Of a stretch of 64,000 nucleotides of DNA, positions 4,593 through 55,447 are shown piece by piece (the first letter of the stretch is position 1; every line of letters begins with the position of its first letter). Both the position numbers and the translations under genes were made by a program. The notes beneath the pieces were generated by a model. It did not search any database, had not been told where the DNA came from, and saw only the letters and a program-made list of their open reading frames with translations. This stretch comes from a phage, in the NCBI GenBank assembly GCA_026209155.1, contig GCA_026209155.1_3056.1; one strand, 5' to 3'.

Positions 4593-4603
4593 TTAATAAT
4601 TAA

Positions 4604-6893: not shown

Positions 6894-7720
<827 letters not shown>

Positions 7721-10415: not shown

Positions 10416-11035
10416 AATTCGCAATACTCTGGGTCTTCGAGAGGTATCCAACCTGAGTTGAAATACTTTACCATCGATTTAGCAGTTGTATCAGTTATAT
10501 TTATATTACCTTTAACTCTTCGCCATCCAGGAGTTTTACCGTACAGATTAGAGGATAATAATAACACATAATTCTCGTAAGCAATATGAGATAATTTCCA
10601 AGACTCTATATTAGCTCGTGATGTTTTCCAAGGTCTAAAATCGTCACGGTTCATATAATTAGCCAATCTCATATGCTCTCTAACTTCCGGGTCTTTGGCT
10701 GGATGAGTTTCACCACTCACACCAAATCCACCACCAGCATATACCAGATTAAAATAGTCTGGATTATCTCTGGCATTTACTTCAAGTTGGTATTTTCGTT
10801 CTGCTTCAATAACATCCAAGTCATCATCAATTTGAATTATTTTAACGCTCGGTTTTTGAAGCATTAGCGCATTCAAAAATCTTTTTTGTTTACATGAGCT
10901 CCAGTATTCCTTTCCGGAAGAGTCATATATTATTCCGTTCTCAAATGAGCAATTTAATTTACTACCGATATAGTAGTATGGCGGAGTCTTATTTTTGACA
11001 CGGTCTTCAAATGTAAACCAATATACTATATTCAT
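10403..11035 (-). CDS. Free-standing GIY-YIG homing endonuclease, segG-like (between genes 32 and 59)
   Basis: N-terminal VYWFTFEDRVKNKTPPYYYIGSK (GIY..YIG spacing); locus equals T4 segG position; paralog of ORF 62077..62964. Confidence 0.65.
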   Translation of the reverse strand: MNIVYWFTFEDRVKNKTPPYYYIGSKLNCSFENGIIYDSSGKEYWSSCKQKRFLNALMLQKPSVKIIQIDDDLDVIEAERKYQLEVNARDNPDYFNLVYAGGGFGVSGETHPAKDPEVREHMRLANYMNRDDFRPWKTSRANIESWKLSHIAYENYVLLLSSNLYGKTPGWRRVKGNINITDTTAKSMVKYFNSGWIPLEDPEYCELCQL

Positions 11036-16300: not shown

Positions 16301-17172
16301 AGCGCAATAAAGCTGGTAATATAACATTTAATATCAATGGTACAGTAACACCGATAAATGTGAATGCTTCAGGAACATTGAATGCGAATGGCGTTGCAAC
16401 ATTCGGTAGTTCAGTTACTGCTAATGGCGAATTTATCAGTAAATCGTCGAATGCTTTTAGAGCAATAAATGGTGATTACGGATTCTTTATTCGTAATGAT
16501 GGTGCTAACACCTATTTTATGCTTACTGCATCTGGTGATCAGACTGGTGGGTTTAATGGATTACGTCCATTATCAATTAATAATCAATCTGGTCAGGTTA
16601 CAATTGGTGAAAGCTTAATCATTGCCAAAGGTGCTACTATAATTTCAGGTGGTTTAACTGTTAACTCGAGAATTCGTTCTCAGGGTACTAAAACCTCTGA
16701 TTTATATACCCGTGCGCCAACATCTGATACTGTAGGATTCTGGTCAATCGATATTAATGATTCAGCCACTTATAACCAGTTCCCGGGTTATTTTAAAATG
16801 GTTGAAAAAACTAATGAAGTGACTGGGCTTCCATACTTAGAACGCGGTGAAGAGGTTAAATCTCCTGGTACGCTGACTCAATTTGGTAACACACTCGATT
16901 CGCTTTACCAAGATTGGATTACTTATCCAACGACCCCAGAAGCGCGCACCACTCGCTGGACGCGTACATGGCAGAAAACCAAAAATTCTTGGTCAAGCTT
17001 TGTTCAGGTATTTGATGGAGGTAACCCTCCTCAGCCATCTGATATCGGTGCTTTACCATCTGATAATGCTATAATGGGGAATCTTACTATTCGTGATTTC
17101 TTACGAATTGGTAATGTTCGCATTATTCCTGACCCAGTGAATAAAACGGTTAAATTTGAATGGGTTGAATAA
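13303..17172 (+). CDS. 34: Long tail fibre proximal subunit gp34
   Basis: 1289 aa, identical length to T4 gp34; repetitive fibre sequence. Confidence 0.95.
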   Translation: MAEIKRKFRAEDGLDAGGDKIINVALADRAVGTDGVNVDYLIQENTVQQYDPTRGYLKDFVIIYDNRFWAAINDIPKPAGAFNSVRWRALRTDANWTTVSSGPYQLKSGESISVDTAAGNDITFTLPSSPIDGDTIVLQDIGGKPGVNQVLITAPVQSIVNFRGQQVRSVLMTHPKSQIVLIFSNRLWQMYVADYSREAVVVTPASLYQAQSNDFIVRRFTSAAAINIKLPRFANHGDIINFVDLDKLNPLYHTIVTTYDETTSIQEDGTHSIEGRTSIDGFLMFDDSEKLWRLFDGDSKARLRIITTNSNIRPNEEVMVFGANNGTTQTIELQLPTNISVGDTVKISMNYMRKGQTVKIKAAGEDKIASSVQLLQFPKRSEYPPEAEWVTVQELVFNGETNYVPVLQLAYIEDSDGKYWVVQQNVPTVERVDSLNNSTRARLGVIALATQAQANVDLENSPQKELAITPETLANRTATETRRGIARIATTAQVNQNTTFSFADDLIITPKKLNERTATETRRGVAEIATQQETNAGTDDTTIITPKKLQARQGSESLSGIVTFVSTAGATPASSRELNGTNVYNKNTNNLVVSPKALDQYKATPTQQGAVILAVESEVIAGQSQQGWANAVVTPETLHKKTSTDGRIGLIEIATQSEVNTGTDYTRAVTPKTLNDRKATESLSGIAEIATQVEFDAGVDDTRISTPLKIKTRFNSTDRTSVVALSGLVESGTLWDHYTLNILEANETQRGTLRVATQVEAAAGTLDNVLITPKKLLGTKSTEAQEGVIKVATQSETVAGTSANTAVSPKNLKWIVQSEPTWAATTLVRGFVKTSSGSITFVGNDTVGSTQSLELYEKNSYAVSPYELNRVLANYLPLKAKAVDSNLLDGLDSSQFIRRDIAQTVNGSLTLTQQTNLSAPLVSSSTATFGGSVSANSTLTISNTGTATRLIFEKGPQTGTNPAQTMTVKVWGNQFSGESDTTRSTVFEVSDETSSHFYSQRNKAGNITFNINGTVTPINVNASGTLNANGVATFGSSVTANGEFISKSSNAFRAINGDYGFFIRNDGANTYFMLTASGDQTGGFNGLRPLSINNQSGQVTIGESLIIAKGATIISGGLTVNSRIRSQGTKTSDLYTRAPTSDTVGFWSIDINDSATYNQFPGYFKMVEKTNEVTGLPYLERGEEVKSPGTLTQFGNTLDSLYQDWITYPTTPEARTTRWTRTWQKTKNSWSSFVQVFDGGNPPQPSDIGALPSDNAIMGNLTIRDFLRIGNVRIIPDPVNKTVKFEWVE

Positions 17173-17180
17173 GAGGTATT

Positions 17181-18299
17181 ATGGAAAAATTTATGGCAGA
17201 GTTTGGACAAGGATATGTCCAAACGCCATTTTTATCGGAAAGCAATTCAGTAAGATATAAAATAAGTATAGCGGGTTCTTGCCCGCTTTCTACTGCAGAA
17301 GGACCATACGTTAAATTTCAGGATAATCCTGTTGGAAGTCAAACATTTAGCGCAGGACTTCATTTAAGAGTTTTTGACCCTTCTACAGGAGCATTAGTTG
17401 ATAGTAAGTCATATGCTTTTTCGACTTCAAATGATACTACATCAGCTGCTTTTGTTAGTTTCATGAACTCTTTGACGAATAATAGACTTGTTGCTATATT
17501 AACTAACGGAAAAGTTAATTTTCCTCCTGAGGTAGTATCTTGGATAAGAACCGCAGGAACGTCTGCTTTTCCATCTGATTCTGTATTGTCAAGATTTGAC
17601 GTATCATATGCTGCCTTTTATACTTCTTCTAAAAGAGCTATTGCATTGGAACATGTTAAACTAAGTAATAGAAAAAGCACAGATGACTATCAAACTATTT
17701 TAGATGTTGTATTTGATAGTTTAGAAGACGTTGGAGCTACAGGATTTCCTAAAAGAACATACGAAAGCGTTGAGCAATTTATGTCAGCGGTTGGTGGAAC
17801 TAATAACGAAATTGCACGTTTACCAACTTCATCCGCGATAAGTAAACTCTCTGATTATAATTTAATTCCTGGCGATGTTCTTTATCTTAAAGCACAGCTA
17901 TATGCTGATGTCGATTTACTTGCGCTTGGAACTACAAATATATCTATCCGTTTTTATGATGAATCGAATGGATATATTTCTTCAACACATGCTGAGTTTA
18001 CTGGACAAGCTGGGTCATGGGAATTAAAGGAAGATTATGTAGTTATTCCAGAAAATGCAGTAGGATTTACGATATATGCACAAAGAACTGCTCAAGCTGG
18101 TCAAGGTGGCATGAGGAATTTAAGCTTTTCGGAAGTGTCAAGAAATGGAAGTATTTCGAAACCTGCTGAATTTGGTATCAACGGCATTCGTGTTAATTAT
18201 ATCTGTGAATCTGCTTCACCTCCAGATATAATGGTACTTCCTACGCAAGCATCGTCTAAAGCTGGTAAAGTATTTGGGCAAGAATTTAGAGAAGTATAA
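17181..18299 (+). CDS. 35: Long tail fibre hinge protein gp35
   Basis: 372 aa as in T4; position after gene 34. Confidence 0.9.
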   Translation: MEKFMAEFGQGYVQTPFLSESNSVRYKISIAGSCPLSTAEGPYVKFQDNPVGSQTFSAGLHLRVFDPSTGALVDSKSYAFSTSNDTTSAAFVSFMNSLTNNRLVAILTNGKVNFPPEVVSWIRTAGTSAFPSDSVLSRFDVSYAAFYTSSKRAIALEHVKLSNRKSTDDYQTILDVVFDSLEDVGATGFPKRTYESVEQFMSAVGGTNNEIARLPTSSAISKLSDYNLIPGDVLYLKAQLYADVDLLALGTTNISIRFYDESNGYISSTHAEFTGQAGSWELKEDYVVIPENAVGFTIYAQRTAQAGQGGMRNLSFSEVSRNGSISKPAEFGINGIRVNYICESASPPDIMVLPTQASSKAGKVFGQEFREV

Positions 18300-19047: not shown

Positions 19048-22000
19048 ATGGCTACTTTAAAACAAATACAATTTAAAAGAAGCAAAACTGCAGGAGCACG
19101 TCCTGCCGCTTCAGTATTAGCCGAAGGTGAATTGGCTATAAACTTAAAAGACCGCGTACTTTTTACTAAAGACGACCAAGGAAATATCATTGATCTTGGT
19201 TTTGCTAAGGGCGGTAGTATTGACGGGAATGTTATTCATAAAGGCAATTATAACCAAACTGGCGATTATACTTTAAACGGTACATTCACCCAGACTGGTA
19301 ATTTTAATTTAACCGGTATTGCTCGAGTAACTCGTGATATTATTGCTGCTGGGCAGATTATGACTGAAGGCGGAGAACTTATTACAAAAAGTTCAGGAAC
19401 GGCACACGTTCGTTTTCATGATTCCGCCGACCGTGAACGCGGTATTATTTTTTCTCCTGCTAATGACGGTTTAACTACACAAGTAATTAACATCAGAGTT
19501 CAAGATTACAAAGCCGGTTCAGAAAGCACTTTCGCTTTTAATGGAAATGGTTTGTTTTCTTCACCAGAAGTTTTTGGGTGGAAATCTGTATCAACTCCGG
19601 TAATTTATACCAATAAAGTTATCACCAATAAAAAAGTTAAAGATGATTATGACATCTATTCGATGGCAGACAATGTTCCATTGTCTGAAAGCACTACTGC
19701 TATTAATCATCTTCGTGTTATGCGTAATGCAGTTGGTTCTGGTATTTTCCATGAAGTTAAAGATAATGATGGAATAACATGGTATAGTGGAGATGGATTA
19801 GACGCTTATCTTTGGTCATTTACTTGGAGCGGCGGAATTAAATCAAGTCACTCAATTTCCATCGGTTTAACACCCGGACCTAAGGATTACTCAATATTAG
19901 GACCGTCTAGTATCGCTTTAGGAGATAATGATACTGGATTTAAATGGCATCAAGACGGATATTATTTCAGTGTTAACAATGGCACAAAAACGTTTTTATT
20001 TAGTCCAAGCGAAACAACTAGCCTAAGAAAATTTATAGCTGGATATTCTACTAACGGAACCGATTTAACTACTCCTCCAACTGAAAATTATGCTCTTGCT
20101 ACTGTAGTGACATACCATGATAATAACGCGTTTGGGGATGGTCAGACTCTTTTAGGATATTATCAAGGCGGTAACTATCATCATTATTTCCGCGGCAAGG
20201 GCACTACAAACATTAATACTCATGGCGGTTTGTTAGTTACTCCAGGCAATATTGACGTTATTGGTGGTTCTGTTAATATCGATGGTAGAAATAATAATTC
20301 AACTTTAATGTTTAAAGGCTATACCATGGGTCAAAGCTCCGTTGATAACATGTATATAGCTGTTTGGGGAAATACTTTTACTAATCCAAGTGAAGGCACC
20401 CGTAAAAATGTCATGGAAATTTCTGATGATATTGGATGGATGCATTATATTCAACGTAATAAAGATAATACGGTTGAAGCCGTGTTAAATGGTCAACAAA
20501 CAATTAATGAAAATATTATTGCGAAAAAGGATATTTGGGTTGACCGAGCAGTTCATACCATTGGCGAAATCACTACAAATGCTGTTAATGGTCTTCGTAT
20601 TTGGAATAATGATTATGGAGCCATTTTTAGACGTTCAGAAGGCAGTCTTCATATTATTCCAACTGCTTACGGTGAAGGTAAAAATGGTGATATCGGTCCA
20701 CTTCGCCCGTTTAGTATAGCTTTAGATACTGGTAAAGTTACTATTCCAGATTTACAATCAAGTTACAATACGTTCGCGGCAAACGGCTATATTAAATTTA
20801 CTGGTCATGGCGCTGGCGCTGGTGGTTATGATATTCAATATGTTCAAGCGGCTCCTATTTTCCAGGAAATCGATGATGATGCTGTAAACAAATATTATCC
20901 GATTGTTAAGCAAAAATACCTTCAAGGTAAAGCAGTTTGGTCTTTAGGTACTGAAATTAATTCAGGTACATTCGTGATACACCATATCAAAGAAGATGGA
21001 ACACAGGGCCATACATCAAGATTTAATGCTGATGGTACAGTTAACTTCCCGGATAACGTTCTGGTCGGCGGTGATATTAACATGAAAGGCTTGCTGACTT
21101 TTGATGCCGGACGTTTAGGATCACGAGATTATTTTAAATTTAACCATTGGGGTGATAGTAATAATGCTCGTGATAACATCATCCAGTTAGAAGATAGTCA
21201 AGGCGCCCATTTTTTCACTGAACGTACTTTAGCGACAGGTGCAATTAAAACTCGTTTCTTTGGCGAAACATTTACTGATGGTACATTATACCTAAATCAG
21301 ATGAATAATAGCTCTGAACAATTCCATATCAATAATTGGGGAAATTCAGAAGTTGGTCGCGCGGCAGTGATGGAAGTCGGTGATTCCAAAGGTTATCACT
21401 TCTATACAGAACGCAGGACAGATAACAGTTTGACGTTTGATGTTGCTGGCAATTTTACTGTGCATGGATCTGGCGGGATCACTATCAAAAACTCTGCTGG
21501 TGCACGACATATCTGGTTTAGAGATGATAGTGATGCGGAAAAGGCTGTTATCTGGGCTACAGATGATGGTATTTTACATATACGAAATAATTATGGGGGT
21601 TCATTTAGTCATCACTTCCGGGGTGCAATGATTCTAGCGGGAGAGCGTGTTCCATATAATAGTGAATACGCTCTTATCCGTGGTAATATTTCCGGTGGTG
21701 CATGGGTAGACTGGCGAGATCGTCCGGCTGGATTGTTGGTAGACTGTCAGGACTCACGAAATCAAGCATATAACATTTGGAAAGCTACTCATTGGGGCGA
21801 ACAGCACCTTGCGGCGATGGGTGTTCATGCTGGCGGTGGTAATCCTCATGTTGCATTGCATGTGGGTGGGAGTGATTATGCATTTGCAGTTAACGGTGAT
21901 TTTACTGCTGGTGCTGCTGTATATTGTAACGACGTTTATATTCGTTCTGACCGTCGTCTGAAAATTAATGTTGAAGACTACGAAGAGAATGCGGTGGATA

Positions 22001-22299
22001 AGGTAAATAAACTCAAAGTTAAAACCTATGATAAAGTTAAATCTCTTTCTGACCGCGAAGTTATCGGCCATGAGATTGGTATTATCGCACAGGATTTGCA
22101 AGAAGTATTACCGGAAGCTGTTAGCACCTCTAGTGTCGGATCTCAGGATAACCCAGAAGAAATTTTAACAATTTCAAACTCTGCTGTGAACGCGCTTTTA
22201 ATTAAGGCCATTCAGGAAATGAGCGAAGAAATTAAAGAATTGAAAACGCCTCTCTTTACTAAAATTGCTCGCAAAATTAGTAAATATTTTAAATTCTAA
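19048..22299 (+). CDS. 37: Long tail fibre distal subunit gp37 with C-terminal intramolecular-chaperone-like domain
   Basis: 1083 aa; N-terminus conserved with fibre proteins; C-terminal about 117 aa after the SDRRLK motif. Confidence 0.9.
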   Translation: MATLKQIQFKRSKTAGARPAASVLAEGELAINLKDRVLFTKDDQGNIIDLGFAKGGSIDGNVIHKGNYNQTGDYTLNGTFTQTGNFNLTGIARVTRDIIAAGQIMTEGGELITKSSGTAHVRFHDSADRERGIIFSPANDGLTTQVINIRVQDYKAGSESTFAFNGNGLFSSPEVFGWKSVSTPVIYTNKVITNKKVKDDYDIYSMADNVPLSESTTAINHLRVMRNAVGSGIFHEVKDNDGITWYSGDGLDAYLWSFTWSGGIKSSHSISIGLTPGPKDYSILGPSSIALGDNDTGFKWHQDGYYFSVNNGTKTFLFSPSETTSLRKFIAGYSTNGTDLTTPPTENYALATVVTYHDNNAFGDGQTLLGYYQGGNYHHYFRGKGTTNINTHGGLLVTPGNIDVIGGSVNIDGRNNNSTLMFKGYTMGQSSVDNMYIAVWGNTFTNPSEGTRKNVMEISDDIGWMHYIQRNKDNTVEAVLNGQQTINENIIAKKDIWVDRAVHTIGEITTNAVNGLRIWNNDYGAIFRRSEGSLHIIPTAYGEGKNGDIGPLRPFSIALDTGKVTIPDLQSSYNTFAANGYIKFTGHGAGAGGYDIQYVQAAPIFQEIDDDAVNKYYPIVKQKYLQGKAVWSLGTEINSGTFVIHHIKEDGTQGHTSRFNADGTVNFPDNVLVGGDINMKGLLTFDAGRLGSRDYFKFNHWGDSNNARDNIIQLEDSQGAHFFTERTLATGAIKTRFFGETFTDGTLYLNQMNNSSEQFHINNWGNSEVGRAAVMEVGDSKGYHFYTERRTDNSLTFDVAGNFTVHGSGGITIKNSAGARHIWFRDDSDAEKAVIWATDDGILHIRNNYGGSFSHHFRGAMILAGERVPYNSEYALIRGNISGGAWVDWRDRPAGLLVDCQDSRNQAYNIWKATHWGEQHLAAMGVHAGGGNPHVALHVGGSDYAFAVNGDFTAGAAVYCNDVYIRSDRRLKINVEDYEENAVDKVNKLKVKTYDKVKSLSDREVIGHEIGIIAQDLQEVLPEAVSTSSVGSQDNPEEILTISNSAVNALLIKAIQEMSEEIKELKTPLFTKIARKISKYFKF

Positions 22300-22335
22300 C
22301 AACAAGGGGGAAATGCCCCCTTTGGAGTATAAATT

Positions 22336-23118
22336 ATGGCAGTAGTTGGAGTTCCTGGCTGGATTGGAAGTTCAGCCGTAAATGAAACGGGTCAGCGCTG
22401 GATGAGTCAAGCAGCTGGTCAATTAAGATTGGGTGTTCCTTGCTGGATGAGTCAATTTGCAGGTCGCTCAAGAGAAATAATTCACACGCTTGGAGCAGAC
22501 CATAACTTCAATGGCCAATGGTTCCGAGATAGATGTTTTGAGGCAGGTAGTACACCTATAGTGTTTAATATCACTGGAGATTTAGTATCATATTCTAAAG
22601 ATGTTCCTTTATTCTTCATGTACGGAGATACACCGAATGAATATGTTCAACTGAATATACATGGTGTAACGATTTTTGGCCGTGGCGGGAATGGCGGTAG
22701 CAATAGTCCTGGCTCAGCTGGGGGTCATTGTATTCAAAATGATATTGGTGGGAGACTAAGAATTAATAATGGTGGAGCTATTGCAGGCGGCGGTGGCGGC
22801 GGTGGAGGCGGATATTATTCTCCTTTTTCACAAATGAGATTGACCTTTGGCGGCGGCGGTGGGCGTCCGTTTGGTGCACCTGGCGGATCTATTGATATGC
22901 AATCAGGCGCGACTGGCGGTACTATTTCTGCACCTGGCTCAGGATCCGTGAATGGTATTTATAATGGTGGAAACGGTGGTGAAGTAGGTTCCGCGGGAGG
23001 TAGATGCAATATTCGCGGTCAAGGATCTGAATATAATGGCGGCGATGCTGGTTATGCTGTTATAGGGTCTGCTCCAACGTGGATAAATGTTGGAGCAATA
23101 TATGGTCCAAGAGTATAA
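22336..23118 (+). CDS. 38: Receptor-recognising adhesin gp38, long Gly-rich-motif type
   Basis: 260 aa with several poly-Gly motifs ([29 protein letters not shown]) between variable segments; immediately after gene 37. Confidence 0.85.
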
Positions 23119-23148
23119 TTTGAATAAATATCCTTAAAAGGAGGGTCT

Positions 23149-26660: not shown

Positions 26661-26810
26661 TTACTGCATGACTGTGATAACTGTCATGATAACACGTTGA
26701 ATTCCGAACGCAAGAAGACCTCCTGCTACGGCTGGAACAACGCCTAAACCCGCTAGTAAAATGCCGCCAGATACTAATGCTGCGCTTGTAATACCTATAA
26801 ATGGACTCAT
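26661..26810 (-). CDS. Small hydrophobic Gly-rich membrane peptide (49 aa), not in ORF track
   Basis: ATG overlaps gene 52 stop (ATGA); hand-translated MSPFIGITSAALVSGGILLAGLGVVPAVAGGLLAFGIQRVIMTVITVMQ. Confidence 0.45.
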   Translation of the reverse strand: MSPFIGITSAALVSGGILLAGLGVVPAVAGGLLAFGIQRVIMTVITVMQ

Positions 26811-28135
26811 TTGATTTCCTCTAAATCTTTGGTGTATTCAGTAACTACATCAGTAGTTTTCCAATATTCGTTTTCTTCTTTTTTAGCTTTAGCTTCTTCA
26901 GCAAGTTTCTTTGCTTCATCGGAAGTCATATGAAAAATATTCATTCCAACTAGTTTATCAACATAAGAAGAATACATCTCAATTTTAGAAAGTTCTTCGG
27001 TCAGTTCTTTGCGAGTTTTACCCTGTACAACGATTTCACCTGAAATTACTTTCTTAATGAAATGTGCCTTGGCAAAGGCTAAACGAAATGCTGATTCAGT
27101 TTCTTTGATTTTGTTATCAATTCGTTTTTGGACATAAGTTTTACGAACTTCAACAAAGTCTTTAATTAAATCAACTACGTTATCGTAAACTTGCAGCTTT
27201 CCTTTCTCATTAATGACTGTAATATTCTGAGAACGACGCTCAATCAACCCGAAGTCTTTCATAATTTTTGCATGGCGTTCTTCTTCGTTATCGCTCAAGG
27301 AATATTCTTTGCGGAATTTAACTTTAAAGCCAAAGCCATGCTCACCGCAAGCATCATCCCATGTAATGAAGCCTTTATCTTCAAGCGGATCTAAGATTTT
27401 ACTCACGTAAGTTTCACGATCATACTTATACGGAATCTCAGTGATATTCATTTGAGTTCGTGAAGTAAACTTGTACGTTCCACGAATTTCATATTGACCG
27501 TCAATTTCAACGACTTCACCACGAAATTCTGGGAATTCTACCTTCGGTTTAGTTACTTTCTTTCCTTGAAGAGCTTGTAGTACAGCTTTCTTGACAGAAG
27601 AAACACTATGAGGAAGAATGTAAGTTGCATAACCAGTTGCAATACCGGAAACACCATTAAGAAGAACAGTAGGAATAATAGGCAAATAGAAAGCAGGAGG
27701 AATGTGTTCTTTATCTTGATGTACCGGAGCATATTCAGTATCTTTATATACGTTATAGAAATTTTTACTTACACGAGCAAAAATATAACGGCTTGCCGCT
27801 GCTTTTTGAACGGTACGAGAACCAAAGTTTCCTTGACCATCTAACAAAGGAAAGTTATTATTCCAAGTATTAGCCATCAAAGCCCCCGCATCTTGTGCAG
27901 AGTTTTCGCCATGATGATATCCAAGGTCAGCTACACCACCTGCAATAGAAGCGAGTTTGTGAAACTTATCTTTATTTCCCCGTGCCAAATCAAGAGCTCG
28001 AGCGATAACAAATCGTTGAACTGGCTTAAATCCATCAATCATATTTGGAATAGCACGGTTTTCAACCGTGTACATAGCATAAGCCAATGCTTCATTATCA
28101 ATGATACTTTTTAAATCGCGATTATTCAGTTGCAT
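26807..28135 (-). CDS. 52: DNA topoisomerase II medium subunit gp52 (GyrA-like)
   Basis: 442 aa as in T4 gp52; GyrA-like N-terminus. Confidence 0.93.
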   Translation of the reverse strand: MQLNNRDLKSIIDNEALAYAMYTVENRAIPNMIDGFKPVQRFVIARALDLARGNKDKFHKLASIAGGVADLGYHHGENSAQDAGALMANTWNNNFPLLDGQGNFGSRTVQKAAASRYIFARVSKNFYNVYKDTEYAPVHQDKEHIPPAFYLPIIPTVLLNGVSGIATGYATYILPHSVSSVKKAVLQALQGKKVTKPKVEFPEFRGEVVEIDGQYEIRGTYKFTSRTQMNITEIPYKYDRETYVSKILDPLEDKGFITWDDACGEHGFGFKVKFRKEYSLSDNEEERHAKIMKDFGLIERRSQNITVINEKGKLQVYDNVVDLIKDFVEVRKTYVQKRIDNKIKETESAFRLAFAKAHFIKKVISGEIVVQGKTRKELTEELSKIEMYSSYVDKLVGMNIFHMTSDEAKKLAEEAKAKKEENEYWKTTDVVTEYTKDLEEIK

Positions 28136-29923: not shown

Positions 29924-30196
29924 TCATAGTTCAATCTCAGCGATTTTCATTTCATTACTATTAATAGCCGCTTTAAGACTATCTGAAAGAATTACATCCC
30001 AGTGGTCATTCATATGACCATTAACTAAACGTGTAATTTCTTCGGGAGTTGAAAAATAAGGCGTATCAGACTCCCAATGCGATAGTCCCAAGCGAGTATA
30101 AATCATACCTTCATCATCGCTAGAATATTCAACTGACACAAACTCATCAGTTATTTTATGTTTAGCGTAATAAAATTTAAATTTCATTTTACTCAA
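29924..30196 (-). CDS. Hypothetical protein
   Basis: 90-aa ORF. Confidence 0.5.
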   Translation of the reverse strand: MSKMKFKFYYAKHKITDEFVSVEYSSDDEGMIYTRLGLSHWESDTPYFSTPEEITRLVNGHMNDHWDVILSDSLKAAINSNEMKIAEIEL

Positions 30197-30399
30197 TAAT
30201 CCGCTAAAAGATCGACGATTGCATCACGAAGACACTTATTCGCAATACGTTTAAGAGCAATTTCAGTTTCTGGAGCATTTTGAATAATCATTGAATTCAA
30301 TTCAGCCTCAGCAAACTGAAGTTCTTTAACTAATTCAGCTTTATATTTTCCTTGCCCTTTCTTAGCTTTTGCTCGTTTTAATTCAGCTGTAGTAAACAT
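30193..30399 (-). CDS. Hypothetical protein (68 aa); track ORF 30193..30498 trimmed to the Met after the promoter
   Basis: MFTTAELKRAKAKKGQGKYKAELVKELQFAEAELNS...; upstream codons lie within the promoter element. Confidence 0.5.
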   Translation of the reverse strand: MFTTAELKRAKAKKGQGKYKAELVKELQFAEAELNSMIIQNAPETEIALKRIANKCLRDAIVDLLADY

Positions 30400-30419
30400 T
30401 TTATTCTCCAAATCCGTAT

Positions 30420-30465
30420 CAGTTGATAGTTGTATAGTACCACAGTCCTTGTGGTATGTAAACCA
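30420..30465 (-). promoter_or_regulatory. T4-type early promoter immediately downstream of denB
   Basis: Minus-strand GTTTAC-17 nt-GTACTATAC with conserved leader CTATCAACTGATAC. Confidence 0.5.
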
Positions 30466-30479
30466 CTTTGTGAAAATTT

Positions 30480-31037
30480 TTAAATGGAAAGATACCATCC
30501 GTTGTAGTTGCTTTTTCTTACAACCTTACGAAGGTCTTCTCTATCACCGATGAACTTCGGAGTGTACTGGATGACACCTGGATGAATTTCTTTAGTGTTG
30601 AATATAATTATACAGTCAGCGACTTGGTGATTCAGAATGGGCCCTAGATTTATTCCAGAACCGTATGGATACTCTCCGCTGCATCCGGTTGTTACCGAAA
30701 TCCAACGTGAGTCAGTTTGATGTGTTTTGACTTCTACACGAAGCCCGCAGTATTTTGGATGCGCCAGTACATCCCATGCATATGTATACGGGTCATTAAC
30801 ATCCTCTTGGCCTTTGTTAACATACCCGCTCAGCCAATCTGCTACAAAAAATTCTGCGTACACAGCGATACGACATCTTTCAATAACTTCTGCTTTATCC
30901 TGATTAGGATTTTGTTTTAAAGAGTATCTTGCTGTATCAGCAATTTTGACCTTCATTTCACTAGTCAAGTCACTGTTCGATAGGGTAAATGTCGGAATCT
31001 GAAATAGTCTCTGTAAACCTGGATTCGTTTTCTGCAT
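30480..31037 (-). CDS. denB: Endonuclease IV (cytosine-DNA-specific)
   Basis: 185 aa as in T4 DenB; between rIIB and ndd. Confidence 0.88.
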   Translation of the reverse strand: MQKTNPGLQRLFQIPTFTLSNSDLTSEMKVKIADTARYSLKQNPNQDKAEVIERCRIAVYAEFFVADWLSGYVNKGQEDVNDPYTYAWDVLAHPKYCGLRVEVKTHQTDSRWISVTTGCSGEYPYGSGINLGPILNHQVADCIIIFNTKEIHPGVIQYTPKFIGDREDLRKVVRKSNYNGWYLSI

Positions 31038-32285: not shown

Positions 32286-32296
32286 AATTTTCCTTA

Positions 32297-34474
32297 TTAG
32301 GCCGCAAGGGCCTTCATAGTTTTAGCGATTTGGGAAACTTCATCATCACTTAAAGAGTTGCGATAACCGATGAAGTCGGAAACAATACGGAATTTCTTGG
32401 TAAACTCAGCAACCATTTTATCACTGTTTTTTGAAGCATTATTTGATAATACATCAAAAAGATTAGTTACTGTCCAGATGTCATGACCGATGGTATCTTT
32501 TCCACCGTTGAAATATACACCCTGTAATGAACTAACCATATTAGCGAGTCGTGTATATTCTTCAGAAACTTCATCTACACTGAAGTACTTCATCATAAAA
32601 TCTAGTTCAGGATACTTAATAATTTTATCAATATATCGTTTAGCTGAACTTGAATAACCTACATACTTATCATAATCTACATCATCAAAAGCATCTACAT
32701 ATAAATCACGCAAAGTTTCAAAAATACATTGGCACTGACCAAGTTCTTTTACCTTTTTCTGCAAAAGCGGACGAATAACATAAAATTCATTAATGCCAAT
32801 AAGATTAGCCATACGAATCAAAATATTCGTAGATGGATGACAAAGCGATGTAGTACCATCCATAGAGAAAATATCAGAATGATGCATGTATGCTACATAA
32901 CCAGTAATTTCATCTGCTTCTGACGTAAGTGTAAACAATTCCTCTTTTTCCCAGCGCCCGTCTTTAATTTCAAACTTAAATGCGGTGGCAGCTTTAGGAC
33001 GAGGAGCTGTACTTTTTACTGCCTTTGGAATATAACTTTTAACTAAAGCTTCAATTTCTGACAAATAATGAATGTTAACTTCATCACTTTCAAACATTGC
33101 CATAATATCAGGAAGCAAATCAATCTGCGATTCTACTTCCGGATTAATAAACAGAAGACGCTCATTGTGATGAATATTCAAAGTGTTATTAAATTCACTA
33201 TCATCTAATGCACGTGCTAATCCACGGACAATATTAACACGATTTTTAATATTATCAATAACGATATTAATTTTTGTTGTGTTAATACCAAACAGACGAT
33301 AACTTGATGCAACGGCTGAAGTTTCATGACTTTGCTTAATGCGTTTTAGTCGAGGGTCAAGATTTACTTCATACACAACCCCTGCATTGCATAACTTACT
33401 GTCAGGTTCAAACATGCTTTGCATCTTCTTATATGACAGATTTTTAGTCGTGAATTTGACCGAATTACTAATCATATAATCTCGAGCAGAATATCCCATC
33501 TTCATCAATTCACGGTATGTATGACGAGGAGATGTAGATTCTTTAAATCGTTTTACATCTTCATTAAATGCCTTCTCACTGAGCTCTTTAACACGCTCAA
33601 TAATATTTTTACGAGTACGATCATCTAGTGAAAGAGCCTCACGCGATGGAGCAATATCAAGTGAACCCATTGGAAACTTAATGTAATTCACTTCATTACG
33701 AATGCTTAACCAGTTACGGTCTCTAATAACACCGTCGATAGGATAAACAATACCACCATAGATAGCATATAATCCACCACGATCTGGCCAGTATCTTTCT
33801 GGATTTACGCCGTAATAATCATCAAAATCAGGAAAATAATCAATTTCGCGGTCAAGACCATTAATGATAGCCAAATCTTTGAATGGTCGCATGATATAAG
33901 AAACTTCATAAGCAAAGTTTCTAAAGTCTTTTTCTTCAACTGGAACTACGATTTCAATACCAGTTTTATCGTCTGGACCCATTTCTTTTACGAATGTAGG
34001 TTTAATCTGCGGACCGTCACCATCCATGTAAGCTACATAACCACGAATTTCGCCTTTATGATATGAAGTGATACTAAACGTATCAGTATAACTAAACGGA
34101 GATTTAGAACCTAAACCAAATCCACCAATGAAATCATTAGATTCAGCCTTAGATGAACTGAAGTATGAATTATACAACCCAGGAGAATTATCATCACCCT
34201 GAATATCAAAATCGCTCATACCCGGACCAAAATCTCGACAAACAAATCGCGGATCTAATCGTCCTGGAACTTGAATGATAAATTTTTCAGGATTTCCATT
34301 AAGAGCATGGGCATCAATCATGTTGGTAATCAATTCACGGACTACTGCGCGAATCTTGTTTGTATACAAATCAGATGATAGAATTTTAAATACTTTAGGA
34401 GATGCTGTGATGCTAAATGCTTTTGATTTAGAACCATTACCAAGAATTGTTTCTTTTTCAGTGGTGATAATCAT
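32297..34474 (-). CDS. rIIA: rIIA protein
   Basis: 725 aa as in T4 rIIA; directly upstream of rIIB. Confidence 0.93.
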
Positions 34475-34484
34475 AATTTCCTCA

Positions 34485-34688
34485 TTAATTCATATTGCGT
34501 TTAATAACTTCAACAACTTCTAGTAGTTCATCTTTAGTTGCGGTGTCGGATTGAATTTTATCTCTAATATCCTTAAAGCGGTTTTTAAACTCTTCAGCTT
34601 CTCCCATATCGAAAAAGCGTTGAATGATTCTATATTCTCGATGAACTGCTTTATCAAAAAGTTCTAAATTTACTTTATATGATTTCAT
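34485..34688 (-). CDS. Hypothetical small protein (rIIA.1-like)
   Basis: 67-aa ORF downstream of a canonical early promoter. Confidence 0.5.
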
Positions 34689-34711
34689 TTCAATATCCTC
34701 ATTTGCCCAAT

Positions 34712-34745
34712 TAATTATACCACATCCTTGTGGTAAAGTAAACTA
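34712..34745 (-). promoter_or_regulatory. T4-type early promoter (-35 GTTTAC, 17 nt, -10 GTATAAT) overlapping the gene 39 stop
   Basis: Minus-strand GTTTACTTTACCACAAGGATGTGGTATAAT. Confidence 0.55.
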
Positions 34746-36563
34746 TTGGCTCATCCATTCTTTACGAAGGTCAGCATTATCTCCCATGAGCATTTCAAAA
34801 AGCTCTTTCCAGTTCTCAGGAAGTTTAACAACATCATATACTGGGTTTTGAATCATCTCACGATATTCAGATTTTTCCAAAGAGCCAAGTCCTTTAATAT
34901 AACGGATGCTATGTTTAGGTAGAGCATCTTTGGCACTCTCATATTCAGCGACTGTATAAAACCATTCTTGTTTTTTACCGACCTGAGCGATGATTACAGG
35001 AGTTTTGACAAAGCGAATTCTTCCTTGTTCAAACAATTCTGGCCAATTACTAAAAAATCCGAGCAGAGAAGGATAAATGCTTCCTAGACCATCATGGTCA
35101 GCATCAGTCATAATAGCAATATTATGATAATTCAAGTTTTCAGCCTTTTCACCAAGAACTAATCCAGTGATTGCACAAATATCGAACAGTTCTTTGTTTT
35201 TAAGCATATCAGCATATGACATGCCCCAACTGTTAAGAACTTTACCACGCAATGGATAACCACCATGAAGTTCTTTATCACGAACATCAATAAGATATCC
35301 GATAGCAGAATCACCCTCAGTCAAGAAAAGAGTAGTATCAGCATCTTTACCGCAAAGATTCGCTTTGATATGTTTATGAACCTTAGCTTTAGAAGCCTTT
35401 TTAGCTGCTTTAGTTTCTGCTGCTTTTTCTGCCGCCAATTTACGAGCCAAAGCAGCTTCAATAATCGGCATTAGAATTGCTTCATTATTTAGAATAGCGC
35501 GTGAAATCTTTTTAGCATCAAGCTGAATATGACTACGAATTTCGCCAAATGGAGAAGTCAAACGCTCTTTAGTTTGAGAATCAAATCGCATGTTTTTCAT
35601 ATCACGAACAAACATAACGATAGTCAAACATTCTTTAACACGTGCTTTAGTTACATCAATTTTGAACTTACGTTTGATTTGTGGAATAAGGTCTTCACAA
35701 ATATCATCCATAACGCAGTCAATGTGATGGCCACCATTCTTAGTATGAATGTTATTGACGTATGTTAATTGACGAAAACCATCCGGTGAACGACCAACCG
35801 CAATAGAACAATTTTCTTGTTCTTGAACAATAGCATGTTCATCATATTGGCGTGCATATTTCTTAAAATTACCCTGAACCTTTTTACCATTAAAGGTAAA
35901 TTGAATATCAGGATAAACTACTGCAAGTGTCTGGAGACGATCTAGCGTAATGTCAAGATAAACTTGAGATAGTTCATTAGTTTCAAATGACATAAAATCA
36001 GGAATGAAAGTAACACGAGTTCCTTTCCATTTTCCAGGAATAGTTTCCCATGATTTATTTTCCATGCCATTTGAACAACGAACTACAATATTATTTTGAC
36101 CATCGCCAGTTTCACCGACAAACATCACAGAAAAAATGTTAGTTAAACTAGAGCCAACACCGTTCATACCGCCAGTGACGCGTTCTTTATCATCACCAAA
36201 GTTACCACCTGCTTTTGGAATAGTCCAGGCAGCAACAGGACCAGGAATTTCTTCACCAGTAGGTGTTTTAACCATCGCTTGTGGAATACCACGACCGTTA
36301 TCTTCAACTGTTACTTGATTGTTTTTGATAGTAACATTAATTTTATTTGCGAATTTAAACTTAGTACGAATACCTTCATCTACTGAGTTATCGATAATTT
36401 CATCAATAAGCTTAACAAGACCAGGTACATACTGAACACTTTCCCATTTACCAAACAGAAAGCGCTCATGCATTTCATTAGCGGAAGAGCCAATGTACAT
36501 GCCGCTACGCTTTTTGATATGTTCAATATCGCTCAGAATTTTAATTTCATTCTTAATCATCAC
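34743..36563 (-). CDS. 39: DNA topoisomerase II large subunit gp39, uninterrupted (GyrB-like ATPase plus Toprim region that is gene 60 in T4)
   Basis: 606-aa continuous ORF; C-terminal IAIMTDADHDGLGSIYPSLLGFFSNWPELFEQGRIRF segment is contiguous. Confidence 0.9.
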   Translation of the reverse strand: MMIKNEIKILSDIEHIKKRSGMYIGSSANEMHERFLFGKWESVQYVPGLVKLIDEIIDNSVDEGIRTKFKFANKINVTIKNNQVTVEDNGRGIPQAMVKTPTGEEIPGPVAAWTIPKAGGNFGDDKERVTGGMNGVGSSLTNIFSVMFVGETGDGQNNIVVRCSNGMENKSWETIPGKWKGTRVTFIPDFMSFETNELSQVYLDITLDRLQTLAVVYPDIQFTFNGKKVQGNFKKYARQYDEHAIVQEQENCSIAVGRSPDGFRQLTYVNNIHTKNGGHHIDCVMDDICEDLIPQIKRKFKIDVTKARVKECLTIVMFVRDMKNMRFDSQTKERLTSPFGEIRSHIQLDAKKISRAILNNEAILMPIIEAALARKLAAEKAAETKAAKKASKAKVHKHIKANLCGKDADTTLFLTEGDSAIGYLIDVRDKELHGGYPLRGKVLNSWGMSYADMLKNKELFDICAITGLVLGEKAENLNYHNIAIMTDADHDGLGSIYPSLLGFFSNWPELFEQGRIRFVKTPVIIAQVGKKQEWFYTVAEYESAKDALPKHSIRYIKGLGSLEKSEYREMIQNPVYDVVKLPENWKELFEMLMGDNADLRKEWMSQ

Positions 36564-36629
36564 TTATCCTCGTTTGGTTTCGGGAATATTATACTCCGGT
36601 AATCATAAAGCTAAAGGCCCGAAGGCCTT

Positions 36630-36902
36630 TTATTTAAAACGGATAGTCGAATCCTTGAAGAATAGACCAGAACACACGGTTCCTTCTACTTTCTGCCCAG
36701 TAGGTCCAATAGCACGAAATCCAGTATGCTGGAAATCATTTTCAGAGCAACCGAACCAATTATATCCAGTGATTTCAATATTAGTAAAACCACTTGAAGA
36801 CAAAACTTTGGTTGCATTATCGGCATCAGTACATCCTACTAAAGATACTGCTAATACTAATGCCGCGATAGAACGATTAACATATTTCATAATTTCACTC
36901 AA
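36630..36902 (-). CDS. Putative lipoprotein (signal peptide plus lipobox LVGC)
   Basis: 90-aa ORF, N-terminus MSEIMKYVNRSIAALVLAVSLVGCTDADN; followed by UUCG hairpin. Confidence 0.55.
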   Translation of the reverse strand: MSEIMKYVNRSIAALVLAVSLVGCTDADNATKVLSSSGFTNIEITGYNWFGCSENDFQHTGFRAIGPTGQKVEGTVCSGLFFKDSTIRFK

Positions 36903-37272
36903 ATTTAATGGCTTGAAGAAGACTAATAATTCTCAAGCGACTTCTTTCATCTTTAACTGTAAAAGAAAGAGGGTCACCAGATTTCATAGTGATGGTGCAT
37001 CCAAAATCAAAATCTTCTGTAACTTCTTCGAATAGGTCAAATTCTTCATCATAAATTAGAACATTACTCTGAAAACTGTGAAGAATTTTTCCATCATTTC
37101 CAGATGCTGTACTAATCACTGTAACATTATTACCTTTCATATCTTCAACGATAAATTCGCTTGTAGATATTACATTACTAATAGAACCATTCCTATAAAT
37201 AGCAGAAAATAGATATTTCTTTTCTTCACCTTCGCGAATGCGATATTTCTTACCGATTTTAAACATAATCAC
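36895..37272 (-). CDS. Hypothetical protein (39.x-like); start may be GTG or the third-codon ATG
   Basis: 125-aa ORF. Confidence 0.5.
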   Translation of the reverse strand: MIMFKIGKKYRIREGEEKKYLFSAIYRNGSISNVISTSEFIVEDMKGNNVTVISTASGNDGKILHSFQSNVLIYDEEFDLFEEVTEDFDFGCTITMKSGDPLSFTVKDERSRLRIISLLQAIKFE

Positions 37273-37447: not shown

Positions 37448-37867
37448 TTATTCCTTAAAATGTGCTTTCAACATCTGATACAAAGACCATGCATGTTCAT
37501 TATTTTCAATAGTAACTTTCATTACCGGGAATTCTGTGAAATCTTCTATTTGTTCTTGCTCTTCCTGCTCTTGTTCTTCAGCAGCCTGATATGGATTTTC
37601 AACTTCATCAAAGAACCCAGCTTCACTTTTTGAAAGCCAAATAAAGTCTTCATCCAAAACATCTTTATCAGGAGATAGTACTAAATTTCCAGTAGATGAC
37701 AAAATTTTAATAGGACGCCCAAGAGCGTCCACATCTAAAATTTTAAAAGGATACATACCTAAACGGCGCGCATAAATTCCGTTATTAATATGGTCTTTAA
37801 TAAAATTTTCTTGAGCTTGTTTATTTTTAAATTGATACCATTTATTAACTTCAAATCTAATAGCCAT
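37448..37867 (-). CDS. Hypothetical protein with acidic [10 protein letters not shown] segment (possibly goF-like)
   Basis: 139-aa ORF. Confidence 0.5.
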
Positions 37868-47318: not shown

Positions 47319-47364
47319 ATAATAATTCTCGCGGCTTTTAAGTCGTCGTTAAAAAAACGAGCTA

Positions 47365-47883
47365 TTAATAACCTCGGTCTTGACGAGCGAAGTTTTCAGC
47401 ATTTTTCAGATAATAAAGTTTAAAGATTTCTTCAGCCGTAAGACCGAGACCTTGGAACATGTTCAGAACGAAATGAAGAATATCAATCATTTCGAATTTA
47501 ATTTCCAACTGGTCTTGCGGAGACAAATCAGTAATTAGAGTTTCACGACGTTCACCATGTTGAGCTTTCCAAGGCTTCCATACAGCAGATGCATCTTTTT
47601 CGCCATTGCTCATACCGCCAAGAGAAGTTAGAAGTTCACGGAATTCATCGTCAATATAATCTTTCTGATTACGCAGCCAATCAACAACTTCACCTGCAGT
47701 AGCCAAATCATCAGGATGACGGTTATATTCAGGTTTATCTTTAGCTAAACGAACTTGCAGAGATTTCTGCATATCAAGCATAACCTGCAGTGGGTCTTTT
47801 TCATCACCGAGAATATCCCAGTATTCATTTTGAGCTTTATCAGCGCCTTCGATCAGTTGTGAACATTCATTAAAGTATGCCAT
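47365..47883 (-). CDS. 56: dCTPase/dUTPase gp56 (MazG-like), from internal Met MAYFNE; track ORF 47365..47976
   Basis: 172 aa from internal Met; MotA-type promoter lies inside the track N-terminal extension. Confidence 0.85.
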   Translation of the reverse strand: MAYFNECSQLIEGADKAQNEYWDILGDEKDPLQVMLDMQKSLQVRLAKDKPEYNRHPDDLATAGEVVDWLRNQKDYIDDEFRELLTSLGGMSNGEKDASAVWKPWKAQHGERRETLITDLSPQDQLEIKFEMIDILHFVLNMFQGLGLTAEEIFKLYYLKNAENFARQDRGY

Positions 47884-47917
47884 TATTTTTCCTTTCAATT
47901 CATGGGTTAGTAGATTA

Positions 47918-47942
47918 ATTATACAATAAATATATAAAGCAA
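47918..47942 (-). promoter_or_regulatory. MotA-dependent middle promoter for gene 56
   Basis: Minus-strand TTGCTTTA, 11-nt spacer, TATAAT, about 30 nt upstream of gp56 ATG. Confidence 0.6.
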
Positions 47943-47954
47943 TAAGGAGGACAT

Positions 47955-48155
47955 ATGGTGCAAAAATTAATGGCACTTGTTGATGCCATCAAAGGTAATA
48001 AAAAACGTATAGCTTTTACTATTTCTGCTATGATAGGAATTTTACTTTGGAATTTTGTTTTATCGCCAGTTGCTATTGCTCATGGCGTTAGTATTCCAGT
48101 AATTACTCTTGATACATTCGTAGATTTAGCATTTGCTTTAGTTGGGTTAATTTAA
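47955..48155 (+). CDS. Small hydrophobic membrane protein (66 aa) on the opposite strand between genes 56 and 61
   Basis: AGGAGG Shine-Dalgarno 5 nt upstream of ATG; two predicted TM segments; stop overlaps gene 61 stop. Confidence 0.55.
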   Translation: MVQKLMALVDAIKGNKKRIAFTISAMIGILLWNFVLSPVAIAHGVSIPVITLDTFVDLAFALVGLI

Positions 48156-52634: not shown

Positions 52635-53790
52635 TTAACTGTTCGAGGTCAGTTTCTAAATCAGCAGCTGATTTACTTTTACTTTCTGGAGATTTAAATT
52701 TTTCAACCTTTGAGTTAATCAATTCATCAACTTCAGCTTCAACAATTTCATTGCTATCAATAGCACCTAACTGATAAGCACGTTTAATAGCATCTCGGAA
52801 TGGTTGATGCTTAAATAAAGGACCCCAGAATGTAGTGCAGTTGGTATCTTTTGCACGCCAAGATTTTTCTTCGCGAATCATCTCACCGGTTTCTTCATCA
52901 AGAAATTCACGAGCATACCAACCGTTCTTAGGTTTTACCACGAATCCTAATTCTAGAGCCATATCTAACAATCCAGAATAAGGATCGATACCACCATCAA
53001 ATTTAACATCAATAAAGAATTTACTTTTTTCTTTAACGGTACGAGATTTTTCTACATTTAGAACAAATTGATACCCCTGAAGATCAGAACCATCTTTAAT
53101 CTGGCGTTTACCGATAATGAATACGGTATCAGCCGAATACATTACGCCTGTACCACCTGTCATCACGGTTTTACTAAACATTTCAATTGTTTCAATTGTA
53201 TGGTTAACCGCAACACATGGAATATTTTTAATGCTAAAATAAGGAGTAACAATACGGAATAATGACTTCAGTGATTTAGCACGAGTCATATCTGCCACAG
53301 ATTTTTCATTCAAGGCATCTTCCGTTTCTTTCTTAGAAGCCATATTACCAATTGAGTCGATGAATACAATAACTTTTTCACCACGCTCAATAGCTTCAAG
53401 CTGATTCACCATATCAATTTTCAGCTGTTCAACTGACTGGATTGGTGTATGAATTACACGTTCCGGATCAACTCCCATGGATCGCAAATAAGCTGGAGTA
53501 ATACCAAATTCGCTATCATAGAATAGACAAACCGCGTCAGGATATTTGTTCAAATACGCCGCAACCATAGTCAAAGACATATTTGATTTAAAGTGTTTAG
53601 AAGGCCCTGCGAAAATAGTTAAACCAGACTGCATTCCACCATCAATCGCACCAGAAATAGCGATATTGAGCATTGGGATTTTTGTACGGATTACATCCTT
53701 TTCATTAAAGAATTTAGATGTAGTCAGCTCAGCAGTCATTTTAGAAGTGGAAGCTTTAATCAAACGGGATTTTAAATCTGCAATAGACAT
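52609..53790 (-). CDS. uvsX: Recombinase UvsX (RecA-like)
   Basis: 393 aa; Walker A GPSKHFKS; RecA-fold. Confidence 0.92.
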   Translation of the reverse strand: MSIADLKSRLIKASTSKMTAELTTSKFFNEKDVIRTKIPMLNIAISGAIDGGMQSGLTIFAGPSKHFKSNMSLTMVAAYLNKYPDAVCLFYDSEFGITPAYLRSMGVDPERVIHTPIQSVEQLKIDMVNQLEAIERGEKVIVFIDSIGNMASKKETEDALNEKSVADMTRAKSLKSLFRIVTPYFSIKNIPCVAVNHTIETIEMFSKTVMTGGTGVMYSADTVFIIGKRQIKDGSDLQGYQFVLNVEKSRTVKEKSKFFIDVKFDGGIDPYSGLLDMALELGFVVKPKNGWYAREFLDEETGEMIREEKSWRAKDTNCTTFWGPLFKHQPFRDAIKRAYQLGAIDSNEIVEAEVDELINSKVEKFKSPESKSKSAADLETDLEQLSDMEEFNE

Positions 53791-53867
53791 TCATTTTTTC
53801 CATAGGCATCATTATATTTTCCTCACTGGTTAAAGATAGAGTAATTATAACACAATAAATTTAGGCA

Positions 53868-54716
53868 TTAATCAACTGCTATTGGATGAATAGCATTAAA
53901 CTTATGAAATGCTTCTGATTTTTCTTTACGAGAAATACACATGCGAAGAACCTTTAATGGCTCGTCTTCTTCACCCAACGATTTTCGTTTTTCAATATTA
54001 GAAGTTTTCCAACGAGCTTGCTCTGGAAACTCTCTATTGATTTGTTCAAGCGCTCTATTATGTTTAGAATTACTACGAATTGAACTGCACCCGCCGGGAG
54101 CGTGTGATTTTCCAGATACAACTAGATATTTGAACAAGGCCAAATGCGGATAACCTTGATTAATTAAATTGAGAAATGCGTACATATCTTCACATAAATC
54201 AATTTTTCCATACCCAATTTGTTCTGTCGTAAGTTTTCCGAGGTCATACCATGTATTCGTGAATCCATATGAGTTTTCACGATAATTACCCCAAGATGAA
54301 GTAATTTTAAAAATAGGTAGACGAGCATGGCCATGATAATACCCACAATCCATGGCATCCTCAACGTATTGAATTAATTCATAGAACTGTTCACGAGTTA
54401 ATTGATTAATTTTATCTACGCGCCGTTTATCGTCTCTCTTTCGTATTGAACTCATACGAATAGTAGTATCATCATCAATCATCCAGATTCGTTGACCTGC
54501 ATACATGTCAGTAATTGCTTTACGAGTACCGGCAATTCCGTTTACATCATCAGGAATAGTTATAATTTTAGCTCTAGACCCATAGGCATCATAATAAGCT
54601 TTTTCTTCGTGTTCACGCACTACAATATGTGGTTCATAATCAGTCGGAAACATATCAAGGGCAGAAACTGCCCCTACACGTTGATAGCTTGGAATTACGA
54701 ATTGAATCATTTCCAC
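53868..54716 (-). CDS. Putative DNA glycosyltransferase (DxD-type) at the beta-gt locus; likely beta-glucosyl-HMC alpha-glucosyltransferase
   Basis: 282 aa with IWMIDDDTTI DxD motif; does not resemble remembered T4 beta-glucosyltransferase; sits between uvsX and 42. Confidence 0.55.
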   Translation of the reverse strand: MEMIQFVIPSYQRVGAVSALDMFPTDYEPHIVVREHEEKAYYDAYGSRAKIITIPDDVNGIAGTRKAITDMYAGQRIWMIDDDTTIRMSSIRKRDDKRRVDKINQLTREQFYELIQYVEDAMDCGYYHGHARLPIFKITSSWGNYRENSYGFTNTWYDLGKLTTEQIGYGKIDLCEDMYAFLNLINQGYPHLALFKYLVVSGKSHAPGGCSSIRSNSKHNRALEQINREFPEQARWKTSNIEKRKSLGEEDEPLKVLRMCISRKEKSEAFHKFNAIHPIAVD

Positions 54717-55447
54717 TCACCGTTATAATCTTTTTTCACAATATGAGTTTCGCCAGTATTCCACCAATGATCAACCAAGTAAAAATGACGAGAATATACA
54801 TGAAGACTTCCAACATTCCATATAATAGAACCTGCTTTATACTGACGAGTTGAATCGCCTGCATTCAAATCAGATACTAATTTATCTAATACGTATTTTT
54901 GCCATGCATAATCATTACGGAATCCGAAGACCACGTCATTTGAGCGCATGCTTACTACTGCATTGACTTTCTTATCACGAATCAGGTACTGTACTGTATT
55001 AGTACACATGAAATCTGACATACCATCTTTATTGTAGTCAAATTGCATGGATGGACGAGTATAAATCATGATACCACGTCGAGAATCAGGATTTTGACCA
55101 AGTTCAGCTAAACACATATCATACTGAGCATAGTTATCTTCTGACCAGATAGCCCAACCGTAATTCGAGTTAATTTCACCTTTAGAAGATGCTACTTGTT
55201 GCCAAATCTTCGGTGTTTCACCCGGAATATCTTTAACGAACAAGCTCTTAGATTTATACCATTCAAGTTCACGCTGAATGTATTCATCATTAAGAGCGCC
55301 AAAAATAAACGGTTCATCTGCTACAAATGATGCGCCAATAATTTCAATAGTTTTAACACCAGTTTTATCAACTACGAAATCTTTTTCTTTTAATGCAAGC
55401 CCCAAATGAAGACGGATTTCTTCAACTGTCATAGAGTCACTAATCAT
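54707..55447 (-). CDS. 42: dCMP hydroxymethylase gp42
   Basis: 246 aa as in T4 gp42; TS-family fold. Confidence 0.92.
   Translation of the reverse strand: MISDSMTVEEIRLHLGLALKEKDFVVDKTGVKTIEIIGASFVADEPFIFGALNDEYIQRELEWYKSKSLFVKDIPGETPKIWQQVASSKGEINSNYGWAIWSEDNYAQYDMCLAELGQNPDSRRGIMIYTRPSMQFDYNKDGMSDFMCTNTVQYLIRDKKVNAVVSMRSNDVVFGFRNDYAWQKYVLDKLVSDLNAGDSTRQYKAGSIIWNVGSLHVYSRHFYLVDHWWNTGETHIVKKDYNGEWK

Follow-up and report, generated by a model that had tools for sequence, protein, structure and literature searches.

The window, as we call the whole 64,000-nt stretch of phage DNA analysed here (contig GCA_026209155.1_3056.1), contains a topoisomerase II large subunit gene that is, with a probability of about 0.97, an ordinary, intact gene 39 belonging to a Tequatrovirus like T2 and T6. 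Under this reading, the gene encodes a complete GyrB-like subunit as one 605-aa chain, and its locus is free of the MobA cassette. We found no evidence that contradicts reading it as an ordinary gene 39. T4 has the same enzyme, and the parts shared with this locus are 96-97% identical in DNA and at least 98% identical in protein. The flanking genes rIIA, rIIA.1, 39.1, 39.2 and goF are also the same in both phages. More broadly, the window comes from a Tequatrovirus, with about 96-97% identity to the records closest to it, and it is collinear with T4 from rnlA/nrdB via rIIB-rIIA to gene 46.

Gene 39 lies on the minus strand, where its open reading frame extends from 36563 to 34743 uninterrupted by any stop codon, as revealed by both the list of open reading frames and a codon-by-codon reading. 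In this mechanically called frame, codon 1 is a GTG directly after an in-frame TAA and codon 2 is an ATG (36560). The upstream sequence reads ...AACGAGGATAAGTGATGATT, and the GAGGA in this region lies 6 nt from the ATG and 3 nt from the GTG. T4 gp39 and the PDB chain of T6 gp39 share the N-terminus MIKNE, the homologous CDSs of T2, T6 and SA21RB are each 1818 nt long, and the annotated homologues all begin at ATG. Because of the GAGGA spacing, the MIKNE homologues and the 1818-nt CDSs, the gene almost certainly starts at ATG 36560 and encodes 605 aa. The alternative start at GTG 36563, which would give 606 aa, was rejected on the basis of its Shine-Dalgarno spacing and of every annotated or solved homologue. 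The earlier note had described one gene of 606 aa; the single gene stands, whereas the length is to be corrected, 606 having come from the mechanical GTG start. The annotation due is gene 39, topoisomerase II large subunit, 605 aa, with an ATG start and without a recoding event. The coordinates of the gene and of the features discussed below are listed in Table 1.

Table 1 Features of the gene 39 locus and the partner gene in the window (residues in 605-aa numbering).
Feature	Position	Strand	Basis or remark
Gene 39, unsplit topoisomerase II large subunit, 605 aa + stop	34743..36560	-	ORF, Pfam, PHROG, PDB match
In-frame GTG upstream of the gene 39 ATG	36561..36563	-	Start in the mechanical ORF list; probably unused
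Native 64-nt segment, codons ~474-494, E-N-L-N-Y-H-N-I-A-I-M-T-D-A-D-H-D-G-L-G-S	35079..35142	-	Replaced by the cassette in T4
GGT-CTA (Gly491-Leu492), point of the 50-nt gap of T4 gene 60	35085..35090	-	Codon view
TOPRIM DxD metal-binding motif (D486, D488)	35097..35105	-	Residues checked
TOPRIM catalytic glutamate E415	35316..35318	-	Residues checked
Hairpin (AAAGGCCTTCGGGCCTTT), then MotA-box-like GCTT, with TATAAT ~13 nt downstream	36582..36628	-	Read from the sequence
Early-promoter-like site (TTTACT, 17 nt, TG-TATAAT), just past the gene 39 stop	34714..34742	-	Scan
Gene 52, GyrA-like topoisomerase II subunit, partner of gp39	26807..28135	-	439/442 identical to T4 gp52

The junction that is split in T4 was read codon by codon in alignment with T4, T2, T6, SA21RB and HY01, and the breakpoints were obtained from blastn and codon views with NC_000866 as the T4 reference. 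Blastn matched window 36892..35143 to T4 5661..3911 (96.0%) and window 35078..32286 to T4 2793..1 (96.6%), leaving 64 nt in the window where T4 has the 1117-nt mobA/bypass cassette. At the protein level, residues 1-473 are 98.3% identical to T4 gp39 1-473 and the last 129 residues align with T4 gp60 32-160. The best local alignment with gp60 (27-160) contains 128 identities in 134 positions, with all 6 mismatches at or before gp60 residue 36. Protein alignment and the codon view revealed no counterpart here of the T4 gp39 tail (474-516) or of the gp60 head (1-31).

In T4 gene 60, a 50-nt untranslated gap separates the take-off GGA from Leu47, and the hop site accordingly reads GAT GGA, then 50 nt starting with TAG, then TTA GGT TCT. 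In contrast, the window reads GAT GGT CTA GGA AGC in frame, with the Gly491 codon (35090..35088) directly adjoining the Leu492 codon (35087..35085). The codon view displays no take-off GGA, no adjacent UAG and no 50-nt gap at this junction, and T4 60.1 and the mobA fragment, used as tblastn queries, had no match across the 64-kb window. The T4 cassette adds a 43-aa C-terminal tail to gp39, a mobA pseudogene, ORF 60.1, a 31-aa N-terminal extension to gp60, a recoded homR and the 50-nt gap with its GGA take-off, UAG and GGA landing, all of which are missing here.

These comparisons bear directly on what had been noticed earlier from the letters of the DNA. The earlier note had held that the peptide IAIMTDADHDGLGSIYPSLLGFFSNWPELF is continuous and fused in frame to the GyrB-like ATPase part. 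Indeed, one uninterrupted frame joins the equivalents of T4 gp39 1-473 and gp60 32-160. The position of about 35060..35125 that it gave for the peptide needs revision, its low end being ~30 nt short: the peptide comprises residues 482-511 in the 606-aa numbering and lies at 35120..35031. Its proposal that both the mobA insertion and the ribosomal hop are absent is borne out by the 64 nt in place of 1117 nt, the missing gap and the tblastn result. Alignment with T4 genes 39, mobA and 60 revealed no stop and no 50-nt insert in the DADHDG region. A hidden stop, frameshift or insert at DADHDG was likewise considered and rejected, since codon reading and alignment to T4, T2, T6, SA21RB and HY01 displayed none.

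The protein has the domain order expected of a GyrB-like subunit. Pfam HATPase_c matches residues 48-150 (1.9e-09), identifying a GHKL ATPase domain, and is followed by the DNA_gyraseB transducer (PF00204, 1.5e-13, residues 251-385) and by TOPRIM_C (4.2e-07). The strings EIIDNSVDE, DNGRGIP and GGMNGVGSS are present in gp39, and from general knowledge of the fold we take them to be the GHKL ATP-binding motifs. The PHROG family annotated as "DNA topoisomerase II large subunit" (phrog_543) matches end to end (7.4e-296, residues 1-606). The NCBIfam models of bacterial gyrB and parE match gp39 over its whole length with scores under their cut-offs, as expected for a shorter, eukaryote-like phage enzyme. 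The catalytic glutamate and the DxD motif of TOPRIM lie on one chain here, whereas in T4 the glutamate is on gp39 and the DxD motif on gp60. E415, D486 and D488 form the metal pocket of T6 topoisomerase II (PMC11461880). The extra TOPRIM insertion of T4 is appended externally and hardly affects activity (PMC11461880). The gene for the partner subunit, gene 52, is also within the window, 6.6 kb from gene 39, and its product matches Pfam DNA_topoisoIV at 1.8e-76.

The closest relatives of this gene are those of T6 and T2. The protein is identical to T6 gp39 (PDB 8YLU chain C, residues 1-605) at 604 of 605 positions, the only substitution being at residue 526, which is Q here and H in T6. Like this protein, T6 gp39 has 605 aa, the same domain order, an unsplit chain and gp52 as its partner. 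Its cryo-EM structures (PDB 8YLU, 8YO1, 8YO5, 8YO7, 8YOD and 8YON) and its relaxation activity in vitro have been reported (PMC11461880). At the DNA level, the collection records closest to the locus are 98.3% identical by megablast. T2 gene 39 (AP018813 2447..4264), which is likewise unsplit and 1818 nt long, has 96.3% nucleotide identity; its 67 differences are scattered and mostly synonymous, and they lead to 2 amino acid differences. This ratio points to strong purifying selection on gene 39. The gene content of the T2 neighbourhood differs slightly from that of the window.

It is likely from these comparisons that gene 39 is translated plainly and collinearly into one GyrB-like chain carrying the GHKL ATPase, the transducer and TOPRIM with E415 and D486-x-D488. 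Two copies of gp39 would assemble with two copies of gp52 into an A2B2 type IIA topoisomerase of the kind solved for T6, which would relax DNA in an ATP-dependent manner during phage replication. ATP-dependent relaxation by gp39/gp52 is to be expected from the near identity to the characterised T6 gp39. The locus itself appears never to have been entered by the MobA homing-endonuclease cassette, which splits the T4 gene and brings in the 50-nt bypass.

The structure of the locus can be compared with the published anatomy of the MobA element. This element is ~1.1 kb long, inserts at its 5' side at Topo2L aa 466-473 and has its 3' edge just after D490/G491, with 9 nt more in the T4 clade/clade 1 (bioRxiv 10.1101/2022.08.31.505936). 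In place of ~64 nt of the parental gene, which are deleted, it leaves a recoded homR with only 67-81% identity to the parental sequence, and the MobA nick site lies within the homR region (bioRxiv 10.1101/2022.08.31.505936). In the window, the 5' break comes after Ala473 and the gap position after Gly491, and the next 9 nt are divergent. The segment is identical to T4 homR at 37 of 54 positions (68.5%), inside the published range, and the flanks are 89-100% identical to T4 per 100-nt step. Since it fits the published anatomy on every count, the locus is, as judged from its sequence, of the parental type. Parental Topo2L genes such as that of RB14 have the same uninterrupted architecture and matching insertion-site coordinates, with no substantive difference.

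Gene nt 1417-1532 (window 35144..35029, 116 nt) are 100% identical to T2. MobA nicking and homing have been reported for a T2 recipient, in the account of Bonocora et al. 2011 cited in bioRxiv 10.1101/2022.08.31.505936. Because its target segment is identical to that of T2, the phage is probably an uninvaded, MobA-sensitive recipient that MobA could convert in a mixed infection. As an uninvaded target of a homing endonuclease, the locus is a textbook case; it is a possible naive recipient for work on MobA homing, and its gene 39 offers a sequence with which the T4 bypass can be compared.

Neither the arrangement nor its interpretation is new. By megablast, the gene 39 locus matches 543 phage records, and only 43 of them have the T4 cassette; the carriers are T4 isolates, RB55, RB59, HY01 and similar phages. 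A 151-nt junction probe was contiguous in 968 of the 1034 matching records, including distant T4-like phages of Klebsiella, Acinetobacter and Citrobacter. RB69 and CC31 also have the contiguous junction, and in these phages the gene is annotated "60plus39". Manning and Atkins (2022) named the unsplit form "parental Topo2L" (bioRxiv 10.1101/2022.08.31.505936), and the arrangement has already been described (PMC3014915; bioRxiv 10.1101/2022.08.31.505936; PMC11461880). Most T4-like phages have the unsplit gene 39, which is also the ancestral form, and the T4 split is a rare exception, so the absence of the split and of the hop is expected here. The significance of the locus beyond correct annotation is small; it brings no surprise and raises no new question.

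A single gene could also be a revertant rather than a primitive form, if the MobA/bypass cassette had been present in an ancestor and was later removed, whether through precise excision or because genes 39 and 60 became fused again. Manning and Atkins have indeed described how the element is progressively lost, with secondary fusion in some clades (bioRxiv 10.1101/2022.08.31.505936), and the first 100 nt of the 5' flank, which are 89% identical to T4 as against 94-100% further out, can be read as a conversion tract. The dip is, however, more simply explained as co-conversion of the flank of T4 itself, and the known losses and fusions retain cassette-derived C- and N-terminal extensions (bioRxiv 10.1101/2022.08.31.505936), none of which is present here. 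The protein has as many residues (605) as its T2 and T6 counterparts, the 54-nt segment has a parental-type sequence (identity of 100% with T2 as against 68.5% with T4 homR), and no trace of mobA or 60.1 was found in the window by tblastn. For these reasons, we consider a revertant very unlikely. A secondary fusion of the kind seen in the Campylobacter-phage clade was rejected on the missing cassette-derived extensions and the T2/T6 length. In a scarless variant of the same idea, the lineage once had the cassette and lost it cleanly, hit-and-run, by recombination with an uninvaded relative. Such a restoration would leave a locus indistinguishable from one never invaded, and we give it a similarly slim chance. 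If it were true, the locus would bear witness to selfish-element turnover rather than to simple ancestry, yet it would only exemplify a dynamic already proposed by Manning and Atkins.

The single open reading frame might, in principle, also be an assembly artefact in which an insertion has collapsed, or a decaying, non-functional gene. We found no support for either, and the idea is barely credible against the rest of the evidence. The protein is 1 aa away from the biochemically active T6 gp39 with all motif residues kept, the comparison with T2 bears the mark of strong purifying selection, and the same arrangement recurs in hundreds of independent genomes. The intact, uninvaded gene 39 is thus the reading that we retain.

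Sequences on both sides of gene 39 resemble T4 regulatory signals. The GCTT and TATAAT upstream of the gene resemble a T4 middle promoter and may be used as one. The hairpin that precedes them was not reported under the terminator rule of a simple scan. In OL960580, the intergenic region upstream of gene 39 likewise has an annotated terminator and an annotated middle promoter, the correspondence being by region and not base-for-base. The early-promoter-like site past the gene 39 stop would serve rIIA.1 and rIIA, and OL960580 has an annotated early promoter between gene 39 and rIIA.1, again corresponding by region and not base-for-base.

Next to gene 39, the gp39.1 homologue (36630..36902, minus strand) is 90 aa long by mechanical call from a TTG, as against 65 aa in T4 and an annotated 86 aa in T2 and T6; its N-terminus resembles a lipoprotein signal (…LAVSLVGC). 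Between 39.1 and 39.2 lies an extra 125-aa ORF (36895..37272, minus strand) that is absent from T4, the window having 371 extra nt. This ORF belongs to PHROG 622, bears a weak resemblance to goF-family proteins and is apparently paralogous to the goF-like ORF at 37448..37867. At the same place, T6 (AP018814 4600..4971) and SA21RB have an annotated ORF of about equal size.

The lack of mobA belongs to the mosaic distribution of homing elements that is usual among T-even phages. Compared with T4, the window is missing several homing-endonuclease elements besides mobA, has kept two and has one extra. The two that are kept are I-TevI, the td intron endonuclease (5066..5800, minus strand), and the free-standing SegG (10406..11035, minus strand), both with 100% protein identity to T4; given their presence, the homing-element content is mosaic and not uniformly poor. 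The nrdB gene has neither the group I intron nor I-TevIII, 600 nt of T4 being missing at a clean junction (window 1054..1057). In place of mobE and nrdB.1 (700 nt of T4) there are 55 nt (window 1731..1785), and T4 segF and segA are absent (window 47319..47401 and 53779..54724). The extra element is a 295-aa ORF (62077..62964, minus strand) that separates gene 45 from rpbA, genes only 51 nt apart in T4. This ORF matches PHROG 655 "homing endonuclease" at 7e-32, and over its first 100 residues it shares 39.8% identity with T4 SegG. From these matches, it is predicted to be a free-standing Seg-type homing endonuclease, absent from T4.

Other parts of the window also differ from T4. The T4 beta-gt gene is replaced by that of a 282-aa T2/T6-type beta-glucosyl-HMC-alpha-glucosyltransferase (53868..54716; phrog_842 3e-88; Pfam TAGT). 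The window lacks the dam methyltransferase gene of T4 (T4 16846..17625), with 20 nt (47924..47943) replacing 899 nt of T4, and tblastn with Dam gave no match across the window. Near the missing dam, in the region 47365..48155, gene 56 has only 76% DNA identity to T4, and a 66-aa ORF (47955..48155, plus strand) lies in the gap before gene 61. The region of the 3' part of gene 37 and of gene 38 (19215..23123) has no DNA match to T4, a divergent feature of the T2/T6 type, and T4 gp38 gave no tblastn match in the window. The position of gene 38 is occupied by a 260-aa ORF (22336..23118), which suggests a putative gp38 adhesin of the T2/T6 type. Finally, small ORFs at 6526..6885, 7475..7720, 7732..8064, 29924..30196 and 30193..30498 (all on the minus strand) lie mostly in stretches without a blastn match to T4, namely td-frd, frd-frd.1 and upstream of denB, and these ORFs near td, frd, frd.1 and denB look like typical content of the T-even "plastic regions".
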